Assembly: GCA_016212095.1 (NCBI GenBank)
Contig: JACRHH010000024.1
Location: 7,482-71,481 of the forward strand
Reading direction: 5' to 3'
DNA length: 64,000 nt
Origin: Nitrospirota bacterium
GTDB lineage: Bacteria; Nitrospirota; Thermodesulfovibrionia; SZUA-242
The notes under the pieces were generated by a model. That model ran no database searches, was not told where the DNA came from, and saw only the letters and a program-made list of their open reading frames with translations. The position numbers were made by a program, and so were the translations under genes. This document shows, piece after piece, positions 7,145 through 50,814 of this stretch (positions are counted from its first letter, which is position 1; each line of letters begins with the position of its first letter).

Positions 7145-7153
7145 ACGGTCGAG

Positions 7154-9109
7154 ATGAACCGCAACATCTACATATCAAACACCCCGCTTGAAGACGCGCT
7201 CAAGCTCTGGAGCGCCGCGCTTGAGGCGCGCGGATGCCTTGCGCCGCTGCCGCCGGAAGCAATTCCGGTTGACGATTCCCTTGGCCGCGTGACCGCCGAG
7301 GCTGTGTTCGCGCCGCGCTCGTCGCCGTTTTATAACGCCGCCGCCATGGACGGAATCGCCGTCTCGTTTGCAAGCGCCGCGGGCGCGAGCGAGGCCGCGC
7401 CGGTGCGCCTGCGCGAAGGCGATGAGTATGTTTGCGTAAACACGGGCAGGCCGATTCCCGATGGTTTCGACGCCGTGATAATGATCGAGGATGTTCACCG
7501 GGCCGGGCCGGGCGTGGTGGAGATAATCGAGCCGGTCACGCCGTGGAAGCATATCCGCCCGATAGGCGAAGACATCGTTGCCACCGAGCTTATCCTGCCG
7601 GAAGGACATTTAATCAGGCCGATCGACGTGGGCGCGATGCTGGCCACGGGCCTTACCCGCGTGAGCGTGCGGAGGATTCCGAAGGCGCTCGTCATTCCGA
7701 CCGGCGACGAGCTTGTGCAGCCGGGCGAGCCTGTTTCGCCCGGCAACATCGTGGAGTTCAACGGGCGCGTGCTTGCCGGATATTTGCGCGAATGGGGCGT
7801 TGAGGCCGCGCGAAGCGAGATCGTGCGCGACGACACGCAACTGCTTGAGGCCGCCATATCGCGCGCGGTTTCCGGGTTCGACATCGTGATAACAAACGCC
7901 GGCGCGTCCGCCGGAACAAAGGACAACACAGCCTCCGTGATCGCCGCGCTGGGCGAGGTGATAGTGCATGGCGTGAACATCAAGCCGGGCAAGCCGGTTG
8001 TGCTTGGCATCGTCGGCGGCAGGCCGGTGATCGGGCTTCCGGGTTATCCTGTGTCGGCGGTGCTGACGATGCGGCTTTTCGCGCGCGGGCTTGCTTACGC
8101 GATGCGCGGCCTGCCGGAGCCCAGGCAGGAGACGGCCTCGGCCATGCTTGCGCGGCCTGTTTCGTCGAAGATGGGCGTGAACGAGTTCATCCGCGTGAAG
8201 CTTGGGTGCGTGGGCGAAAACCTGATGGCCACGCCGTCGGGCAGGGGAGCAGGCGCGGTGATGTCGCTTGTTCAGGCCGACGGAATTCTGGTTGTGCCTG
8301 CCGGAAGCGAGGGAATTGGCGCGGGCGAGAAGGTGACGGTTGAGCTTCTGCGCGGCATCGACGAGATAGAAAATACCATTGTTGCAATCGGAAGCCACGA
8401 CAACGCTCTGGACGCGCTGGCCAATTTTCTGCATGTTTGGCGCGATGTCCCGCGAGGCTTGCCGAGAGGCGGAAGCACCACGCGACTTTCCTCCGCGCAC
8501 GTCGGAAGCATGGGCGGCATACTGGCGATAAAGCGTGGCGAGGCGCACATGGCCGGAACGCATCTGCTGGATGAGGAAACCGGCGAGTATAACATTGCGT
8601 TTATAAAGCGTTTTCTGCCGGACACGCCGCTTTTGCTCGTGAATCTGGTTTACCGCACCCAAGGCCTGCTCGTGCCGAAGGGCAATCCGAAAGGCATCCG
8701 CGGGTTTGAAGACCTTGCGCGCCCGGACGTGACCTTCATCAACAGGCAGAGGGGCGCGGGAACAAGGCTGCTAACCGACATGTACCTGAAAAAACTGGGC
8801 ATTGCGCCGGAAAGCGTGCGCGGCTACGACCGCGAGGAATACACCCACATGACAGTGGCGTCAGCCGTGGCGTCGGGCTCGGCTGATTGCGGGCTTGCGA
8901 TTCTTGCCGCCGCCCGCGCGCTTGGTCTGGATTTCATTCCGGTTGCTGGCGAGCGGTACGATCTGATCATTCCCAAGGCATATGCCGACGATGCTAAAAT
9001 CCGCGCCCTTCTTTCGGTAATCCGCGAAAACCGCGAGTTCCGCGAAACGGTGGAACGCATGGGCGGCTACGACATGCGCGACTGCGGACGGGTGATGTAC
9101 GAACAGTAG
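7154..9109 (+). CDS. moeA: MoeA-family molybdopterin molybdotransferase fused to a C-terminal periplasmic-binding-protein-like (molybdate/tungstate-binding type) domain
   Basis: N-terminal 400 aa is MoeA-like (PTGDELV, NAGASAGTKD, GLPGYPVSA). C-terminal 250 aa resembles a PBP-like-2 / ModA-like domain (COG1910-type fusion). Confidence 0.8.
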   Translation: MNRNIYISNTPLEDALKLWSAALEARGCLAPLPPEAIPVDDSLGRVTAEAVFAPRSSPFYNAAAMDGIAVSFASAAGASEAAPVRLREGDEYVCVNTGRPIPDGFDAVIMIEDVHRAGPGVVEIIEPVTPWKHIRPIGEDIVATELILPEGHLIRPIDVGAMLATGLTRVSVRRIPKALVIPTGDELVQPGEPVSPGNIVEFNGRVLAGYLREWGVEAARSEIVRDDTQLLEAAISRAVSGFDIVITNAGASAGTKDNTASVIAALGEVIVHGVNIKPGKPVVLGIVGGRPVIGLPGYPVSAVLTMRLFARGLAYAMRGLPEPRQETASAMLARPVSSKMGVNEFIRVKLGCVGENLMATPSGRGAGAVMSLVQADGILVVPAGSEGIGAGEKVTVELLRGIDEIENTIVAIGSHDNALDALANFLHVWRDVPRGLPRGGSTTRLSSAHVGSMGGILAIKRGEAHMAGTHLLDEETGEYNIAFIKRFLPDTPLLLVNLVYRTQGLLVPKGNPKGIRGFEDLARPDVTFINRQRGAGTRLLTDMYLKKLGIAPESVRGYDREEYTHMTVASAVASGSADCGLAILAAARALGLDFIPVAGERYDLIIPKAYADDAKIRALLSVIRENREFRETVERMGGYDMRDCGRVMYEQ

Positions 9110-9133
9110 AGACGCATCGCAATGCGTCTCTAC
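9106..9133 (+). terminator. perfect palindrome GTAGAGACGCAT-cgca-ATGCGTCTCTAC overlapping the moeA-PBP stop codon. Member of a 3-copy palindromic element family.
   Basis: 12-bp stem and 4-nt loop read directly. Related copies at 27678-27723 and 34514-34541. Confidence 0.6.
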
Positions 9134-22294: not shown

Positions 22295-22426
22295 ACGACC
22301 TTCCTACAACGCTGATACTCCAGGCAGTCTAACGGCCGGAACTTTCAATTATTTAAAATATCGGCGGGAAAGTCAAACGGCGCTGTAAGTTGCTCAGAGA
22401 GAGAACCGTTCCGATTGCTTAATTAC

Positions 22427-22540
22427 GACTCCCCCCTTTGCGGCGGGTGCGAAAGCCGACTCCCCCCTTTGTGGCGGGTGCGAAAGCCGACTCCCCCCTT
22501 GCCCCCCTCATTGAGGGGGGTGGCGAAGAGCCGGGGGGAG
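22427..22540. repeat. GC-rich nested-palindrome repeat cluster: 2x 31-bp direct repeat GACTCCCCCCTTTG(C/T)GGCGGGTGCGAAAGCC, then the element CTCCCCCCTTGCCCCCCTCATTGAGGGGGGTGGCGAAGAGCCGGGGGGAG. Same family as the in-gene copies at 49337-49462.
   Basis: Read directly. Inner hairpin CCCCCCTCA/TGAGGGGGG, outer CTCCCCCC/GGGGGGAG. Confidence 0.8.
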
Positions 22541-22576: not shown

Positions 22577-23272
22577 CTACTTCACTTCCTGCTTCGGCTG
22601 ATCCTTATGCTCCTGATGCTGTCCGCCTCCCATGTAGGCAGACTCCTCGGCGGCCCGGAACGCGGAGGCTTCCTGCGCGCTTATCAGCTTGTCCTGCGAG
22701 CGGTCAACCGCCTTCAACGCGGCCAGCACTTCGCCGTCGCCGCCCTTGCCGTCCTCGAACAGCTTCAGCTTCTCGGCAAACGCCGTGTCGCGAAGCGCCC
22801 TGTAGCGAAGACCGGCCTTGTAGTCGGTGAATGCTTCGGATGAGATGTCGTAAATAATATCGCCGCTGAAGAACACCACCTTGATGCCCTTGCCGCGCAT
22901 CTTCTCGGTTTCGAGTATCTTGCTCATCTCGGCCTCGCGCGAGTCGCAACGGGCCTTCTGGTCGGCCATCTGCCCCTTGATGTCGGACATTCCCTTGTCG
23001 CAATCGGCCTTCTGGGTTGTAACGCTTCTCTCGCAATCGGCCTTCTGCGACGCAAGCTGTTCCTCGCTCTGCCTTCTAAGCTGCGATTCCTTGTTCGCGC
23101 AGTCAACCTTCTGGTCGGCCAAGAGCTTTTCCATCTGGGCCACGCTCTGCTCAAGCTCGGTAATGCGCTTCTTGCCGGTCACGTCATCCATGGACGCGCA
23201 TCCTGCAAGCCCGACAAAAGCCGCGGAAACGGCAATTACCAAAAAGCGGGACAATGATTTGTTGCTATGCAT
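22577..23272 (-). CDS. lipoprotein with four ~11-residue QKADC-type repeats (coiled-coil-like)
   Basis: Signal peptide and lipobox (LAGC) after MHSNKS start. RBS AAGGAGGGAG. Repeats QKVDCANKESQ/QKADCERSVTT/QKADCDKGMSD/QKARCDSREAE. Confidence 0.6.
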   Translation of the reverse strand: MHSNKSLSRFLVIAVSAAFVGLAGCASMDDVTGKKRITELEQSVAQMEKLLADQKVDCANKESQLRRQSEEQLASQKADCERSVTTQKADCDKGMSDIKGQMADQKARCDSREAEMSKILETEKMRGKGIKVVFFSGDIIYDISSEAFTDYKAGLRYRALRDTAFAEKLKLFEDGKGGDGEVLAALKAVDRSQDKLISAQEASAFRAAEESAYMGGGQHQEHKDQPKQEVK

Positions 23273-23453
23273 CGATACTCCCTCCTTGCACGGGATTAAT
23301 GAAATTACTGTTCCGCGTTGCGCGGATACAGGCTCTTTTCGGAAGAAACCGGCGAAACTCAATATAGCAGGGCAACGAACGGCTGTCAAACATGCCGCCG
23401 CTTTTCCGGCTTCTTTGCGTTGGCTGCCCGCTTTCACTATACTAGGCAGACAC

Positions 23454-24365
23454 ATGAAGCATCTTCAGTTAAAAAAGCCGCTCGTATTTCTCGACCTGGA
23501 AACAACCGGAACCAACACAGCATCCGACCGCATTGTCGAAATAGCCCTTGTCAAGATACTGCCGGGCGGCGCGCGCGAGGTGTTCGAAACCCGCATTAAC
23601 CCCGAACGCTCCATACCGGCGGTTGTCAGCCGCATTCACGGCATCACCGACGCCGATGTTGCCGACAAGCCGACATTCAGGGAAACCGCAGGCCGCGTGG
23701 CCGGTTTCATCGAGGGATGCGATCTTGCCGGATTCAATATCATACGGTTCGACATTCCGCTTCTGATAGAGGAATGCAGGCGGGCCGGAATAGAGCTGTC
23801 ACTGGAAGACAGGTCTCTGGTTGACGCGCAGGTCATCTTCCACAAGAAGGAGCCGCGCTCGCTTGAGGCGGCGGTTCAGTACTACTGCGAGCGAGAGCAT
23901 GTGAACGCGCATTCGGCCTTGGGCGACGTCGAGGCCACCATCGACATACTTGACGCGCAGCTTGCACGATACAAGGATGTTCCTGCCGACGCCGAGGCCC
24001 TGCACAATTTTTGCGACCAGAAGAACCCTAATTTCGTTGACAGATTCGGCAAGATGGTCTGGAAAGACGGCGAGGTCTGCATGAATTTCGGCCCGCACCG
24101 GGGCAAGCTGCTTCGCGACATCATCGAAAAGGACGCCACGTTTCTGGACTGGATGCTGCGTAAGGATTTCTCTGTCGAGGTGAAACGGATAATCTCCGAT
24201 GCTATGATGGGGAATTACCCTTCGCCGCCCGGCGATACGGAAGAACCGGCAGCACCCTTGAAACCGGTTCAGGCCGTAAAACCGGTGGCGGAGAATGGCG
24301 CGAATCCTGAGGAAGCTAAAGTGGCAGACAAACCCGCAGATTCAAAGCATCCGCGTTTCTGGTAA
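23454..24365 (+). CDS. DnaQ-like 3'-5' exonuclease (DEDDh) with C-terminal extension
   Basis: LVFLDLETTGTNTASDRIVEIALV exo I motif, HSALGDVEAT exo III motif. Start ATG 23454; the track start 22881 is antisense to the lipoprotein gene. Confidence 0.75.
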   Translation: MKHLQLKKPLVFLDLETTGTNTASDRIVEIALVKILPGGAREVFETRINPERSIPAVVSRIHGITDADVADKPTFRETAGRVAGFIEGCDLAGFNIIRFDIPLLIEECRRAGIELSLEDRSLVDAQVIFHKKEPRSLEAAVQYYCEREHVNAHSALGDVEATIDILDAQLARYKDVPADAEALHNFCDQKNPNFVDRFGKMVWKDGEVCMNFGPHRGKLLRDIIEKDATFLDWMLRKDFSVEVKRIISDAMMGNYPSPPGDTEEPAAPLKPVQAVKPVAENGANPEEAKVADKPADSKHPRFW

Positions 24366-27627: not shown

Positions 27628-27677
27628 TAACAGCGTAACATTGCATATCACAGTACGGGCGAACGGCTGTTCGCCGT

Positions 27678-27723
27678 GTAGAGACGCATGATTATGTAGA
27701 GACGCATGATTATGCGTCTCTAC
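27678..27723 (+). terminator. palindromic element copy 2: GTAGAGACGCATGATTAT x2 direct, closed by GCGTCTCTAC (10-bp stem hairpin)
   Basis: Read directly. Preceded by a second hairpin GGCGAAC-ggct-GTTCGCC (27657-27677). Lies between the hsp20 stop and the clpB start. Confidence 0.55.
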
Positions 27724-27739
27724 AAATAAGAGGAAACCA

Positions 27740-34508: not shown

Positions 34509-34513
34509 AACAT

Positions 34514-34541
34514 GCAGAGACGCATTGCAATGCGTCTCTAC
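34514..34541 (+). terminator. palindromic element copy 3: GCAGAGACGCAT-tgca-ATGCGTCTCTAC, 5 nt after the rSAM stop
   Basis: Read directly. 11-12 bp stem. Confidence 0.55.
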
Positions 34542-34557
34542 TGCAATCCGTCTCTGC

Positions 34558-47648: not shown

Positions 47649-48863
47649 ATGAAATTTGATAAATCAATGCGCGTAAAAACAGGCATCGACCGGATTAATC
47701 AGCGCTTTCCCGCGCAGCTTCGCGCCTGCCGCGTTGGCTTGCCGCGCGCCTGCCGCGTTGGTCTAATCGCCCATCAGGCGTCTGTCGATTGCCGTCTGCG
47801 CCATGCCGCAGACATCTGCCTCGCCTCGAAGAATTTCCGCCTGGCCACCCTGTTCGGCCCGCAGCACGGGTTCACCGGACACACTCAGGACAACATGATC
47901 GAGTGGCATGGATTCCGCGATCCGCGCACCGGGCTTCCGGTTTACAGCCTCTACGGCGAAACGCGCAAGCCGTCGCCCGACATGCTGGACGGCATCGACG
48001 CTCTTGTCATCGACATGCAAGACGTTGGCGCGAAATATTACACATTTATATGGACGATGGCGCTCTGCATGGAGGCCGCCGCCGAGGCGGGCAAGGCGGT
48101 GGTTGTGCTCGACCGCCCGAATCCGCTTGGCGGCGCGATGGAAGGCCCGGCAACCAGGCCTGAATGGGCGTCGTTCGTGGGCCTGAAACCGCTTCCGGTT
48201 CGCCACGGCATGACGATTGGCGAGATAGCGCTTTATCTCAAGGGCGAGTTCTATCCTTCTGTCGATCTCACGGTCATTCCCATGCGTGGCTGGCGGCGCG
48301 GGATGTATTTCGATGAAACCGGCCTGCCGTGGGTGATGCCGTCGCCCAACATGCCCACGCTCGACACAGCGATTGTCTATCCGGGCATGTGCCTGCTCGA
48401 AGGAACCAACATCAGCGAGGGGCGCGGCACCACGAGGCCGTTCGAGCTGTTCGGCGCGCCGTTTATTGATTCCGCCCGGCTTATCGCCCGGCTGAACGAT
48501 TTCCGGCTTCCGGGTGTTTTCTTCCGCCCAGCCTCGTTTCTGCCCACGTTTCAGAAACATGCCGGAGAACTCTGCGGCGGGGCGCAGATTCATGTAACCT
48601 CGCGTCGGGCGTTCAAACCGTTCAAAACCGCAGTGGCGATCCTGAAAGCAGTTCGCGAGCTCTGGCCGGATGAACTTAAATGGAAAGAGCCGCCGTACGA
48701 GTACGAGTCTGAAAAGCTGCCGATAGACATACTGGCCGGAAGCGACCGGCTGAGAATGGGGATAGATTCGGGCGAGGGGCTTGACGCGATGGAGAGATGG
48801 TGGGCCGCGGAATGCCGCAGCTTCGCGCGGCGATATGCGGAGAGGTATCGATTATATGAATAG
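47649..48863 (+). CDS. namZ: DUF1343 / NamZ-like exo-beta-N-acetylmuramidase
   Basis: DUF1343 body (RVGLIAHQASVD..., GIDALVIDMQDVGAKYYTF...). Contains an in-frame 21-bp tandem duplication near the N-terminus. Confidence 0.7.
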   Translation: MKFDKSMRVKTGIDRINQRFPAQLRACRVGLPRACRVGLIAHQASVDCRLRHAADICLASKNFRLATLFGPQHGFTGHTQDNMIEWHGFRDPRTGLPVYSLYGETRKPSPDMLDGIDALVIDMQDVGAKYYTFIWTMALCMEAAAEAGKAVVVLDRPNPLGGAMEGPATRPEWASFVGLKPLPVRHGMTIGEIALYLKGEFYPSVDLTVIPMRGWRRGMYFDETGLPWVMPSPNMPTLDTAIVYPGMCLLEGTNISEGRGTTRPFELFGAPFIDSARLIARLNDFRLPGVFFRPASFLPTFQKHAGELCGGAQIHVTSRRAFKPFKTAVAILKAVRELWPDELKWKEPPYEYESEKLPIDILAGSDRLRMGIDSGEGLDAMERWWAAECRSFARRYAERYRLYE

Positions 48864-50814
48864 ATCGGGCGGTTTTACCGCCTTCATTCCGGCAGCCGGT
48901 TTCGGCACGCGGTTGCGGCCCATAACCAATCACATGCCCAAGGCTCTTTTGCCTGTAATCGGCCAGCCGCTTGTCGGGCTTGTTGCGGCGCGTGTGGTTG
49001 AGGCGGGTGCATCTGCCATTGGCATAAATGCGCGTCACCTGCCGGATATGATTGCGGCATGGGCGGCGGAGTTGGAGTATGCAAAACTCATAACGCTGTT
49101 TCGTGAGCATGAGGTTCTTGGCACAGGCGGAGCCATATGGAACGCGCGCGATTTCCTGCGCGGCGACTACTTTCTGCTTCACAACTGCGACATCCTCTCT
49201 GACATCGATCTGCGGCGGCTGATCGCGCATCACGAGGCGTCCGGCAACCTGATAACGCTTGCGGTGCATGACAGGCCGGGGCTGAATAATCTGCGATTGA
49301 ACCCGGACGGCTTGCTGGTGGGTGTGGAGAGAAGCAACTCCCCCCTTGCCCCCCTCAATGAGGGGGGTGGCGAAGCCGGGGAGTTTGCCACTACAACTCC
49401 CCCCTTTACAACTCCCCCCTTGCCCCCCTCATTGAGGGGGGTGGCGAAGCCGGGGGGAGTTTCTTCTTCCGCCTACACCGGCATCGCCGTCTATTCCCGC
49501 CGGTTCATCGATTACCTGCCCGTCGGCCCGTCCGATGTGGTGGCCGGATGGCTTCGAGCGGCTGCCATCGGTGAGAGAATCGGCGCGCTCGATTTCACCG
49601 GATGCTTCTGGGAAGACCTCGGCACGCCAGCCGCCTACGCCTCCGTTGTCTGGCGGATGCTCCGCGCCGAAGGCGAACGCGCGTTTTTCAATCCCGCAGC
49701 CAGGGGCTGCAACATGGCGGCGCTCATGGGCATGGCGTCGGTTGAGGCGGGCGCGCGAATAACCGGCCCGGTTACGTTCGATCATGCAATCGTGCTTCCT
49801 GGCGCGAATATCGGCGGCGGCGAGGCAGTGATGGAGGTAATTGCCAACTCAATCGCCGGGCCGGATTATCGAATAGCCATACCGCCGCCCGATGACGCCG
49901 GCAATGTTAGCGGCGGCGGTTCAGACCGGGTTTACCGGCGCGTCCGGCGTGATGGCGGCACGGTTATTTCGATGTCAACTAGCTCAACCGATCCGGATTA
50001 CGAGCGCCAGATTGCGTATTCAAGATATTTCGCCGCGCGAGGTATTCCGGTTCCGAGGCTGATCGACGCCGACGCCGATGCGCGAACAGCCGTTTTCGCC
50101 GATCTTGGCGACCGCTCGCTCTACACATTCGGCAAATGCGCCGAAGCGCGCGGGCTTGTCGAGCCGGTTTATCTGGCGCTGATGAAAACAATGGCGCAAC
50201 TCCACGCGCCGTTCGATGCAGAAGCCGCTCCGGCGTTCCGGATGTTCGACTACGAGCATCTTCGATGGGAAACCTATTATTTTTTAAACGAATTTGTGCG
50301 CGGGCTTTGTGGCATGGAACCTGCTGATCCGAAGCGTCTGGACGCCGAATTCCATGCGCTTGCCGTGAAGGTGGACGGCTTCGGCAAGCGGATTGTGCAT
50401 AGAGACTGCCAATCGCAGAACATCATGCTTGCGCCCGATGGCTCCCCGTATCTCATTGACTATCAGGGCGCGAGGCTCGGCCCGCCCGCCTACGACATGG
50501 CGTCGCTTCTGTGGGATCCGTATGTGCCGATGCCGGATGATATGCGCGAAAGGCTGGTTTCGGCGTATGAAGCCGCGCGGAAAGAGAACGAGGGCGCGGC
50601 GTTCGACATGGCCGAGTTTCGTGCGTCGCTTCTGCCATGCCGCCTCCAGCGCCACATGCAGGCGCTTGGGGCCTACGCGTTTCTGTCCGGAAAGAAGGGG
50701 AAGACGTATTTCAGGAAGCACATCCCGGCGGCGGTTGAGATGCTTCGCGCCGAGGCGGCTCTGGTTGCGGATGAGATGCCGGAGTTGGCGGGGGTTGTGA
50801 GGGGGCTGAAGTAA
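48856..50814 (+). CDS. fused N-acetylmuramate-1-phosphate uridylyltransferase (MurU-like NTP-transferase) + N-acetylmuramate/N-acetylglucosamine kinase (AmgK-like APH-fold), with two MITE-like repeat copies inserted in-frame in the MurU domain
   Basis: AAGFGTRLRPIT NTP-transferase motif. Domain resumes after the insertion (YTGIAVYSRRF...WEDLGTPAAY). Kinase motifs HRDCQSQNIML, IDYQGARLGP. Start ATG 48856 overlaps the namZ stop. Confidence 0.75.
   Translation: MNRSGGFTAFIPAAGFGTRLRPITNHMPKALLPVIGQPLVGLVAARVVEAGASAIGINARHLPDMIAAWAAELEYAKLITLFREHEVLGTGGAIWNARDFLRGDYFLLHNCDILSDIDLRRLIAHHEASGNLITLAVHDRPGLNNLRLNPDGLLVGVERSNSPLAPLNEGGGEAGEFATTTPPFTTPPLPPSLRGVAKPGGVSSSAYTGIAVYSRRFIDYLPVGPSDVVAGWLRAAAIGERIGALDFTGCFWEDLGTPAAYASVVWRMLRAEGERAFFNPAARGCNMAALMGMASVEAGARITGPVTFDHAIVLPGANIGGGEAVMEVIANSIAGPDYRIAIPPPDDAGNVSGGGSDRVYRRVRRDGGTVISMSTSSTDPDYERQIAYSRYFAARGIPVPRLIDADADARTAVFADLGDRSLYTFGKCAEARGLVEPVYLALMKTMAQLHAPFDAEAAPAFRMFDYEHLRWETYYFLNEFVRGLCGMEPADPKRLDAEFHALAVKVDGFGKRIVHRDCQSQNIMLAPDGSPYLIDYQGARLGPPAYDMASLLWDPYVPMPDDMRERLVSAYEAARKENEGAAFDMAEFRASLLPCRLQRHMQALGAYAFLSGKKGKTYFRKHIPAAVEMLRAEAALVADEMPELAGVVRGLK
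49337..49462. repeat. two tandem copies of the nested-palindrome GC-rich element (ACTCCCCCCTTGCCCCCCTCA(A/T)TGAGGGGGGTGGCGAAGCCGGGG(GG)AG) inside the murU-amgK coding sequence: 126 nt, 42 codons, in-frame
   Basis: Read directly. Same family as 22427-22540. Translates as SPLAPLNEGGGEAGEFATTTPPFTTPPLPPSLRGVAKPGGVSSS. Confidence 0.85.

Follow-up and report, generated by a model that had tools for sequence, protein, structure and literature searches.

Rickettsia palindromic elements (RPEs) are approximately 100–150 bp long, AT-richer than the element described below and not known outside Rickettsia, with short forms that are CGTC-tagged; the GC clusters or double-hairpin elements of fungal mitochondria are GC-rich, spread within a genome and may also be located in frame inside protein genes. 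Intragenic copies of RPEs and of repetitive extragenic palindromic (REP) elements have been described (PMC3733652, PMC6006769). GCGNAGC and GCGNNAGC are mini-hairpin DNA motifs, closed by a C:G pair and with G and A at the ends of the loop, melting near 76–82 °C as DNA (r(GCGAAAGC): 39 °C), and are known from single-stranded DNA (ssDNA) priming sites and for their poor binding of single-stranded DNA-binding protein (SSB) (PMC13037366). Here, a short nested palindrome, termed the Y-element, was analysed, of which two copies lie in frame within a MurU-like gene of a Nitrospirota bacterium (contig JACRHH010000024.1, positions 7,482–71,481). This 64-kb stretch is referred to as the window, and the family hidden Markov model (HMM), Tandem Repeats Finder (TRF), shuffles and folding were run on its sequence. 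The 126-nt segment holding both copies is read as selfish palindromic DNA of the REP/RPE type, defined by its structure and tolerated inside a gene (probability approximately 0.6); with regard to the enzyme, it is most likely neutral selfish DNA in a permissive loop.

An in-frame palindromic insert in a MurU-like gene

The repeat that the original prediction had placed in the gene and in the intergenic region before speD was recovered at both positions, and the family HMM returned exactly three full copies over the window, two genic and one intergenic (Table 1). The 11-mer ACTCCCCCCTT occurred 7 times (6 exact) against 0.64 expected, which was reached in 0 of 100 shuffles, and the 48-mer had no match in 100 shuffles, so that a chance origin of the repeat is excluded. 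The claimed 42-codon, stop-free segment in frame within the open reading frame (ORF) was confirmed as well; since 4 of the 6 frames of the element are open, the lack of stops by itself says little. In 5′ to 3′ order the insert reads ACTCCCCCCTTGCCCCCCTCAATGAGGGGGGTGGCGAAGCCGGGGAG-TTTGCCACTACA-ACTCCCCCCTTTACA-ACTCCCCCCTTGCCCCCCTCATTGAGGGGGGTGGCGAAGCCGGGGGGAG, corresponding to copy 1, spacer, partial unit and copy 2, and a tandem repeat of period 15 (2.0 copies, 100% match) was assigned by TRF at 49392-49421.

Each copy of approximately 48 nt was computed to fold as ssDNA, on either strand, into the nested structure originally drawn, a three-way junction (−20.7 kcal/mol for copy 2, z-score −4.5 on both strands) consisting of an outer stem P1 (CTCCCCCC/GGGGGGAG), an inner hairpin P2 (CCCCCCTC-loop-GAGGGGGG) and a 3-bp mini-hairpin P3 (GGC-GAA-GCC). 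The P1 arms of 8–9 bp constitute terminal inverted repeats, as in a miniature inverted-repeat transposable element (MITE), and the whole insert folded as RNA gave −83 kcal/mol (z −6.4). The mini-hairpin DNA motif, predicted to fold, was found as GCGAAGC in P3 of 3/3 full copies and as GCGAAAGC in each of the two 31-nt partial units (22449-22456, 22480-22487). Using Rfam, only two tRNAs reached the gathering threshold in the window, and permissive scans of both loci returned only generic hairpin (miRNA) models, far under thresholds.

Translation of the two genic copies proceeds in different frames and gives SPLAPLNEGGGEAGE for copy 1 and TPPLPPSLRGVAKPGGV for copy 2; the frame said to be shared with the intergenic copy is thus that of copy 2, copy 1 being read in another. 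Intergenic copy and copy 2 are identical over 39 nt, followed in the former by a 2-nt insertion in the mini-hairpin, and the match of this perfect palindrome with the intergenic copy points either to recent copying between copies or to strong structural constraint. The intergenic copy is flanked by the 3′ end of ORF 22577-23455 (−) and by a promoter-like site (22376->22348) of speD, which encodes an AdoMet_dc protein, and is antisense to both genes; neither a terminator-like site nor a T-tract terminator was found in this region.

The only close orthologues of the host protein that were found, P0003 (locus L001, 75% identity) and P0002 (locus L004, 78% identity), both have related inserts of other sizes at this site. 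P0003 holds a single decayed copy ACTCCCCCCAAGCCACCCTCAATGAGTGGCGTGGCGAAGCCGGGGGGAG, preceded by a remnant AAATCCACCCC..GGCCCCGG, and P0002 holds two sister-type hairpins, CCCCCCTTTgacAAAGGGGGG and CCCCCCTTTattAAAGGGGGG, of the form CCCCCCTTT..AAAGGGGGG. The 3′ junction GGGGGGA(G)|TTT(T)C is common to all three genes, and insert length varies between 20 and 42 aa, neither sequence nor length being conserved; homologues of ≤51% identity have only about 10 residues at the insert position. As site and 3′ junction are shared and content differs, the insertion is old and its content was turned over: the element entered before the known orthologues diverged and was later duplicated or eroded lineage by lineage. 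The insert is therefore not private to this genome. The predicted potential for slippage is borne out by the copy number, which tandem duplication and deletion altered among the orthologues. The same P0003 allele was recovered from three assemblies made independently, two by JGI and one by Logan, which rules out an assembly artefact for the phenomenon as such; the frame also continues on both sides of the insert, which speaks against the assembly error considered in the original prediction, although the exact copy number of two is provisional.

The host protein, a fusion of two domains, had MurU (NF045761, 92.8 bits, cut-off 250) and AmgK (NF045759, 70.5 bits, cut-off 550) as best NCBIfam matches, both below cut-off, and MurU 4Y7T as best sequence match in the Protein Data Bank (PDB; E 9e-15). 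An AlphaFold2 (AF2) model, built on 18 homologues, matched MurU 4Y7T/4Y7V at template modelling (TM) scores of 0.86–0.87 and the kinase 3CSV at TM 0.75. The name MurU thus stands at the level of the fold and is weakened to MurU-like by the NCBIfam score; nothing indicates that the enzyme, earlier called essential-looking, is essential. The NamZ gene directly upstream recurs beside the fusion gene at L001 and L004, and the two plausibly form an N-acetylmuramic acid (MurNAc) salvage set. On account of the domains, the best NCBIfam and PDB matches, the fold matches and the adjoining NamZ, the label MurU-like/AmgK-like MurNAc salvage enzyme is reasonable, membership in MurU or AmgK being putative. 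Relative to the MurU fold, the model has about 40 extra columns. Insert residues 161-200 had a predicted local distance difference test (pLDDT) score of about 30, between confident strands at 153-157 and 203-214 (pLDDT 85–95), and the 42 encoded residues are therefore predicted to form a disordered, Pro/Gly/Thr-rich surface loop between two β-strands; the nucleotidyltransferase domain is split by the insert, as claimed, at a loop.

Table 1 Features of the window that bear on the Y-element and its host gene
Feature	Position	Strand	Remarks
MurU-like + AmgK-like fusion gene (host)	48856-50814	+	652 aa; Pfam NTP_transferase (N-terminal) and APH (C-terminal)
NamZ exo-β-N-acetylmuramidase gene	47649-48863	+	directly upstream of host gene; Pfam NamZ_N E 7e-83, NamZ_C E 9e-54
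Whole in-frame insert	49337-49462	+	126 nt, 42 codons, stop-free, within ORF 48856-50814
Element copy 1	49338-49383	+	loop CAATGAG; 3′ arm two G shorter; −16.6 kcal/mol; HMM E 2e-10
Copy 1, P1 5′ arm	49338-49345		
Copy 1, P2 hairpin	49349-49367		
Copy 1, P3	49369-49377		GGCGAAGCC
Copy 1, P1 3′ arm	49378-49383		GGGGAG
Spacer between copies	49384-49395	+	12 nt, TTTGCCACTACA; homologue GCCAC(A/T)ACAA precedes the single copy of orthologue L001
Partial unit	49396-49410	+	15 nt, ACTCCCCCCTTTACA; tandem duplicate of copy 2 start
Element copy 2	49411-49459	+	perfect nested palindrome; −20.7 kcal/mol, z −4.5; HMM E 2e-11
Copy 2, P1 5′ arm	49412-49419		
Copy 2, P2	49423-49441		
Copy 2, P3	49443-49451		
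Copy 2, P1 3′ arm	49452-49459		
Two 31-nt partial units	22426-22487	+	CGACTCCCCCCTTTG[C/T]GGCGGGTGCGAAAGC; without inner hairpin; TRF period 31, 97% match
Intergenic full copy	22490-22540	+	−21 kcal/mol; found by HMM

The compact arrangement of namZ followed by the fusion gene was observed at 47649-50814 of the window and at L001 7873-11941, where a pair of an Xre-family antitoxin and a RES toxin sits between the two genes. Within namZ, a 17-nt exact repeat at 24-nt spacing (47721-47761) results in an in-frame duplication of 8 residues close to the NamZ N-terminus (LRACRVG LPRACRVG). Another repeat family of the window, unrelated to the Y-element (9104-9133, 27677-27724 and 34513-34543), has the form GTAGAGACGCA-loop-TGCGTCTCTAC and represents a double-foot GTAG...CTAC REP, the first copy of which provides the TAG stop of a MoeA/PBP-like gene (7145-9109), whereas the second contains an 18-nt tandem duplication; these REPs suggest that the genome also hosts a REP-associated tyrosine transposase (RAYT) system. 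Finally, positions 96-206 are occupied by a 30-nt tandem repeat TTGACCAAACCGGCTGCAAGCAACCGGAAG (3.7 copies, 96% match) with a small hairpin CCGGCTGCAAGCAGCCGG in each unit.

Distribution of the family and its copies in genes

The family was sampled by a metagenome scan for the P2-P3 core, which yielded at least 120 loci with at least 129 elements. Structure was judged by our own structural parse and HMM, as P1 and P2 did not stay in register in MAFFT alignments. The consensus obtained was (A)ATCCCCCC-NN-CCCCCCTT(T)-NNN-(A)AAGGGGGG-T-GNC-GAA-GN'C-GGGGGGAT(T). Its P3 N positions, free in the search, were complementary in 124 of the 129 elements listed, and in an alignment of 57 sequences the free pair covaried (GC 33, CG 17, AU 3, UA 1, unpaired 3), which was reached in 0 of 500 shuffles. 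The P1 5′ arm, likewise free in the search, was present in most copies, its two outer pairs following Watson-Crick rules in 73/75 and 68/75 elements (A:T in the family at large, C:G in the window lineage), and P2 loop and linker vary freely across the family. The foot of the element was ACT or (A)AT followed by C6 in the three window copies and approximately 75 parsed members, and the REP guide GT[AG]G was not found 0–2 nt 5′ of the hairpin foot in the same set.

Near-identical CT..AG copies were found in a 'delta proteobacterium' metagenome-assembled genome (MAG; L009, L015), and a tandem array in a Burkholderiales MAG (L024); further carriers were other Nitrospirae MAGs (L043, L051), Competibacteraceae, Crocosphaera and Snowella, with variants in cyanobacterial and Bacteroidia MAGs. 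The window element is a lineage variant of a large family present in several phyla and in phage contigs. A tblastx comparison of the window with L009 and L015, which carry near-identical elements, revealed no shared genes. In IMG/VR contigs the 5′ half (P1 arm + P2) is abundant and P3 is optional or reads GCGTAGC or GCGCAGC, still fitting GCGNAGC; the window lineage variant had no match in viral contigs, and the P3-containing form had 6 matches, too rare for re-examination of the sense bias described below. BLAST of the consensus gave nothing against plasmids and, against phages, only a partial copy in the portal gene of Haemophilus phage SuMu, the low-complexity filter probably hiding more. 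A description of the family was not found in the literature by DNA words, peptide words or topic, key subscription papers being outside the search, so an earlier description cannot be excluded; the family is apparently undescribed.

In portal gp29 of the cultured phage SuMu (JF832915.1 15687-15720; L229 1500-1534), the 5′ half AAATCCCCCCTAGCCCCCCTTTTTCAAAGGGGGG is read as KSPLAPLFQRG. Phage-contig half elements of the form ATCCCCCC-NN-CCCCCCTTT..AAAGGGGGG are often followed by AGAAA...ATG (L307, L304, L285, L281 and other IMG/VR loci); they thus closely precede a start codon, and their G-run could double as a ribosome-binding site or come after a terminator. One Y-element occupies the centre of an approximately 125-nt MITE whose terminal inverted repeats (TTATTAATCCGGCAACTATTTATGCAAA...) measure 28 nt; this MITE was found in at least 17 copies of 95–99% identity (L116, L118, L121, L138, L143, L146 and 11 more, JGI Ga0334722); there, the mini-element hitch-hikes in another mobile element. 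A loose pattern scan of the genome collection returned mostly chance matches, besides a distinct alphaproteobacterial repeat CCCTCCCCCCTTTGCGGGGGAGGGTGGCGAACGnAGTGAGCCGGGAGAGGGG in Microvirga/Methylobacterium (L006, L013, L017, L023, L047, L053 and others), which may be a distant relative of the family.

A copy was counted as genic if a stop-free frame ran through it and extended for at least 50 codons to either side. This applied to 50 of 132 elements compared with 65% of random positions in the same loci, so that the family is approximately two-fold depleted from genes and far from excluded; about 60% of the sampled copies are intergenic. Hosts confirmed by Pfam were valyl-tRNA synthetase (ValRS), aconitase B (AcnB), glycogen-debranching enzyme (two sites), Mu-type portal (full copies at L142 and L161), an MmeI-like restriction-modification enzyme, a DNA methylase, TnpB (two loci scanned) and RpoD. 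Further spanning ORFs, named by appearance and not by Pfam scan, were a 2951-aa glucan synthase, a polyketide synthase and additional TnpB copies. In total, more than 20 unrelated proteins host the element, typically as the peptide IPPNPPLxKGGGEAGGI. In the MurU-like gene and the Pfam-confirmed hosts, the copies are in frame and stop-free in intact, conserved ORFs of unrelated function, as is known for RPEs. In four TnpB (IS605 OrfB / Cas12f-like) genes (L111, L132, L139 and L198), Y-elements were present in frame at two or more sites, which may simply mirror the abundance of TnpB in cyanobacteria, the alternative being a link with IS200/IS605 biology.

Genic copies are strongly biased in orientation, 42 being sense and 7 antisense (45 vs 8 with a crude gene caller). 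Clustering by host protein left 19 sense and 4 antisense clusters; as two of the latter were spurious opposite-strand ORFs of sense hosts, the corrected ratio is about 19:2 (binomial p ~2e-4). Stop codons were rejected as the cause, antisense frames being equally open (131 elements; sense frames 76, 93 and 83, antisense frames 106, 76 and 65). So was a replication-strand bias, since intergenic copies show no preference with respect to flanking genes (the upstream gene being on the same strand in 27 cases and on the opposite one in 34), and so was the strand asymmetry of GAAG alone, which amounts to only 1.5–1.9:1 sense over antisense. The sense bias is therefore unexplained by stop codons, replication strand or GAAG asymmetry. 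In about 90% of genic copies it is the coding strand that carries the strand-specific GCGNAGC mini-hairpin, and its GAA is read as Glu in about 70%, matching the GAAG phase of the hosts: sense copies use the GAA-codon frame 29 times, the AAG-codon frame 8 times and the CGA-AGC frame 5 times, which parallels the GAAG codon phase (151, 60, 9) in 39 kb of host coding DNA. Both biases could result either from insertion guided by short homology, with integration anchored on GAAG-like codons and recurrent hotspots, or from transcription filtering the orientation, a hyperstable DNA mini-hairpin on the template strand being selected against.

Filled and empty alleles and the origin of the insert

Filled and empty alleles were compared for two family members, those in ValRS and AcnB. 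In the ValRS pair (Competibacteraceae, 83–88% identity), 12 nt are replaced by 54 nt (empty CTGGCCGGC|GTGGCGGGCGAC|TCCATC; filled CTGGCCGGG|AAAATCCCCCCCAACCCCCCTTTGGAAAAGGGGGGTGCCGAAGGCGGGGGGATT|TCCATC); E. coli ValRS has the length of the empty allele, which suggests that the empty state is ancestral. In the AcnB pair (Crocosphaera, 94–95% identity), 24 nt are replaced by 51 nt (empty ...CGTCCC|AGTGTACCA-GAAGAC-ACAGGCAAA|GGCTTT; filled ...CGTCCG|ATCCCCCCTTCCCCCCTTAGTAAGGGGGGTGTC-GAAGAC-GGGGGGATACCT|GGCTTC). The empty state of AcnB is ancestral, its peptide being conserved across cyanobacterial genera, and the ancestral in-frame GAAGAC was kept, now making up the 3′ part of P3 in a rare form, GTC-GAA-GAC. 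Neither pair showed a target-site duplication or flanking direct repeats, which argues against DDE-type cut-and-paste, is a poor fit to HUH-type insertion and is compatible with templated copying. Of the MITE/REP behaviour originally proposed, the dispersed palindromic repeat tolerated in frame was upheld, and a strict MITE was not, given two pairs of family members without target-site duplication. Putative empty sites in the glycogen-debranching gene were set aside as uninformative, probably being deletion remnants.

In sister lineages, the ValRS site is occupied by decayed copies, by copies expanded to three hairpins or by another hairpin family, and both the ValRS and the MurU-like site hold different hairpin-family members from one sister lineage to the next. 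At L353 (ENA ERZ15185726) as well as in P0048, P0056 and P0064, another G/C-run hairpin CTCCCTCCCCCCTCGCGGGGGAGGGTTGGGGTGGGGGGGAT (peptide LPPSPLAGEGWGGG) was observed in the ValRS loop that hosts the Y-element in some Competibacteraceae; this loop must be a hotspot or else exceptionally permissive.

Under the reading as selfish DNA, copies would arise or be renewed by templated copying, with other copies as source, rather than by cut-and-paste, for instance by gene conversion or by template switching at hairpin-prone ssDNA, possibly anchored on short homology. Genic copies would survive only if in frame, stop-free and in a permissive loop, and for the enzyme the insert has no demonstrated role. 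Several points weigh against this account. The mechanism rests on just two filled/empty pairs, the likeness of the replaced target bases to P3 could be chance, and the filled AcnB alleles may go back to one event, given that a non-element 'CCT' junction recurs in them across genera. The window shows just two loci with the element, the strong sense bias is not predicted by random insertion plus a reading-frame filter, and covariation together with conservation across phyla could equally mean a functional structure rather than a merely selfish one. Movement of a REP-type element by an HUH/Y1 transposase (RAYT or IS200/IS605-like TnpA) recognising hairpins and foot is the strongest of the alternatives and still rather unlikely: hairpins with a conserved foot, the missing target-site duplication, the canonical REPs of the window with a RAYT that may exist in the genome and the known in-frame REPs, even within RAYT genes, would suit it, and a P3 GCGNAGC far more stable as DNA than as RNA (PMC13037366) points to a single-stranded DNA form. 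However, the guide tetranucleotide is absent, target bases are replaced and not simply interrupted, intergenic copies lack the strand bias relative to neighbours known from IS200/IS605, and no Y1 transposase gene was noticed beside any copy, although no systematic search was made.

It is less probable again that the element is a nucleic-acid signal under selection, such as an mRNA stabiliser or attenuator or an ssDNA priming or SSB-excluding site, with genic copies as incidental by-products. The covariation in P3 and P1, the near-identical architecture across phyla, the abundance of the 5′ half in phage contigs and the occurrence of GCGNAGC and CCGAAGG mini-hairpins, which bind SSB poorly, at primase/ssi sites fit such a signal, yet no Rfam family matches, no T-tract terminator is present, intergenic copies take either orientation to flanking genes, and copies occur inside unrelated ORFs, tandem arrays and a MITE, as parasitic DNA does. 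That the Pro/Gly-rich loop was selected as a linker or regulatory loop appears improbable: the insert was kept at the same site in three lineages and one reading frame (GGGEAGG) predominates among genic copies, but sequence and length differ between orthologues, the loop has low pLDDT, the two copies in the gene are read in different frames, and the same DNA lies between genes and in dozens of unrelated proteins. An intergenic repeat mis-joined into the gene, or a mis-assembled copy number, is hardly credible in spite of the allele being known from a single MAG contig and of the poor performance of short-read assemblers on tandem repeats, given the continuous frame and conserved protein on both sides, the presence of inserts at this site in orthologues recovered independently in JGI, Logan and ENA assemblies, the diagnostic differences between the two copies and the recurrence in so many hosts.

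A wider claim, that the family is an undescribed class of DNA-level three-way-junction elements which colonises genes of several phyla without a transposase, is put forward as doubtful, although the coding-strand position of the mini-hairpin and the reading of its GAA as Glu point in this direction; if true, it would offer a general route from structured DNA to new protein loops. For annotation, the element adds Pro/Gly-rich loops of 14–42 residues to conserved enzymes (ValRS, aconitase B, RpoD) and yields spurious 'PPLxKGG'-type ORFs, the recognition of which would improve gene models and alignments. For protein evolution, the element shows permissive loops to be long-lived landing pads with content turnover and a source of length variation and disorder.

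Comparison with known systems

In behaviour, the Y-element comes nearest to REPs and RPEs. It resembles REP elements, bacterial interspersed mosaic elements (BIMEs) and REP doublets forming hairpins (REPINs) as a short, dispersed, imperfect palindrome that occurs singly or clustered, among the sampled copies mostly between genes, and sometimes in frame (PMC3733652, PMC6006769). It differs in lacking the GT[AG]G foot, in its compound three-way junction where a REP is a single hairpin, and in being near-identical across phyla, whereas REPs are species-specific. With RPEs, in the summary given in PMC3733652, it shares the palindromic structure and the in-frame position in many unrelated, apparently functional genes, to which surface peptides are added; the Y-element is shorter (about 50 nt), contains C6/G6 runs and is taxonomically broad. 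Like MITEs, it is small, non-coding and multicopy with terminal inverted repeats (the P1 arms), but it showed no target-site duplication in two comparisons, lies under the usual MITE size and has no known parent insertion sequence (IS). The fungal GC clusters differ in being organellar, of unrelated sequence and without the mini-hairpin module.

The mini-hairpin motifs of the G4 origin, ssiA and the N4 promoters are approached by P3 (GCGAAGC or CCGAAGG), by GCGAAAGC in the 31-nt units and by the phage variants GCGTAGC and GCGCAGC; the known cases are single functional sites on single-stranded replicons, in contrast to a dispersed family, and a priming or SSB-exclusion role of the Y-element is speculation. 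The combination of three-way junction and DNA mini-hairpin with base replacement, no target duplication and a sense bias of approximately 10:1 is unexplained by REP/RAYT or MITE models. What sets the Y-element apart from the described systems is the three-way junction, the module of mini-hairpin DNA and near-identity across phyla.

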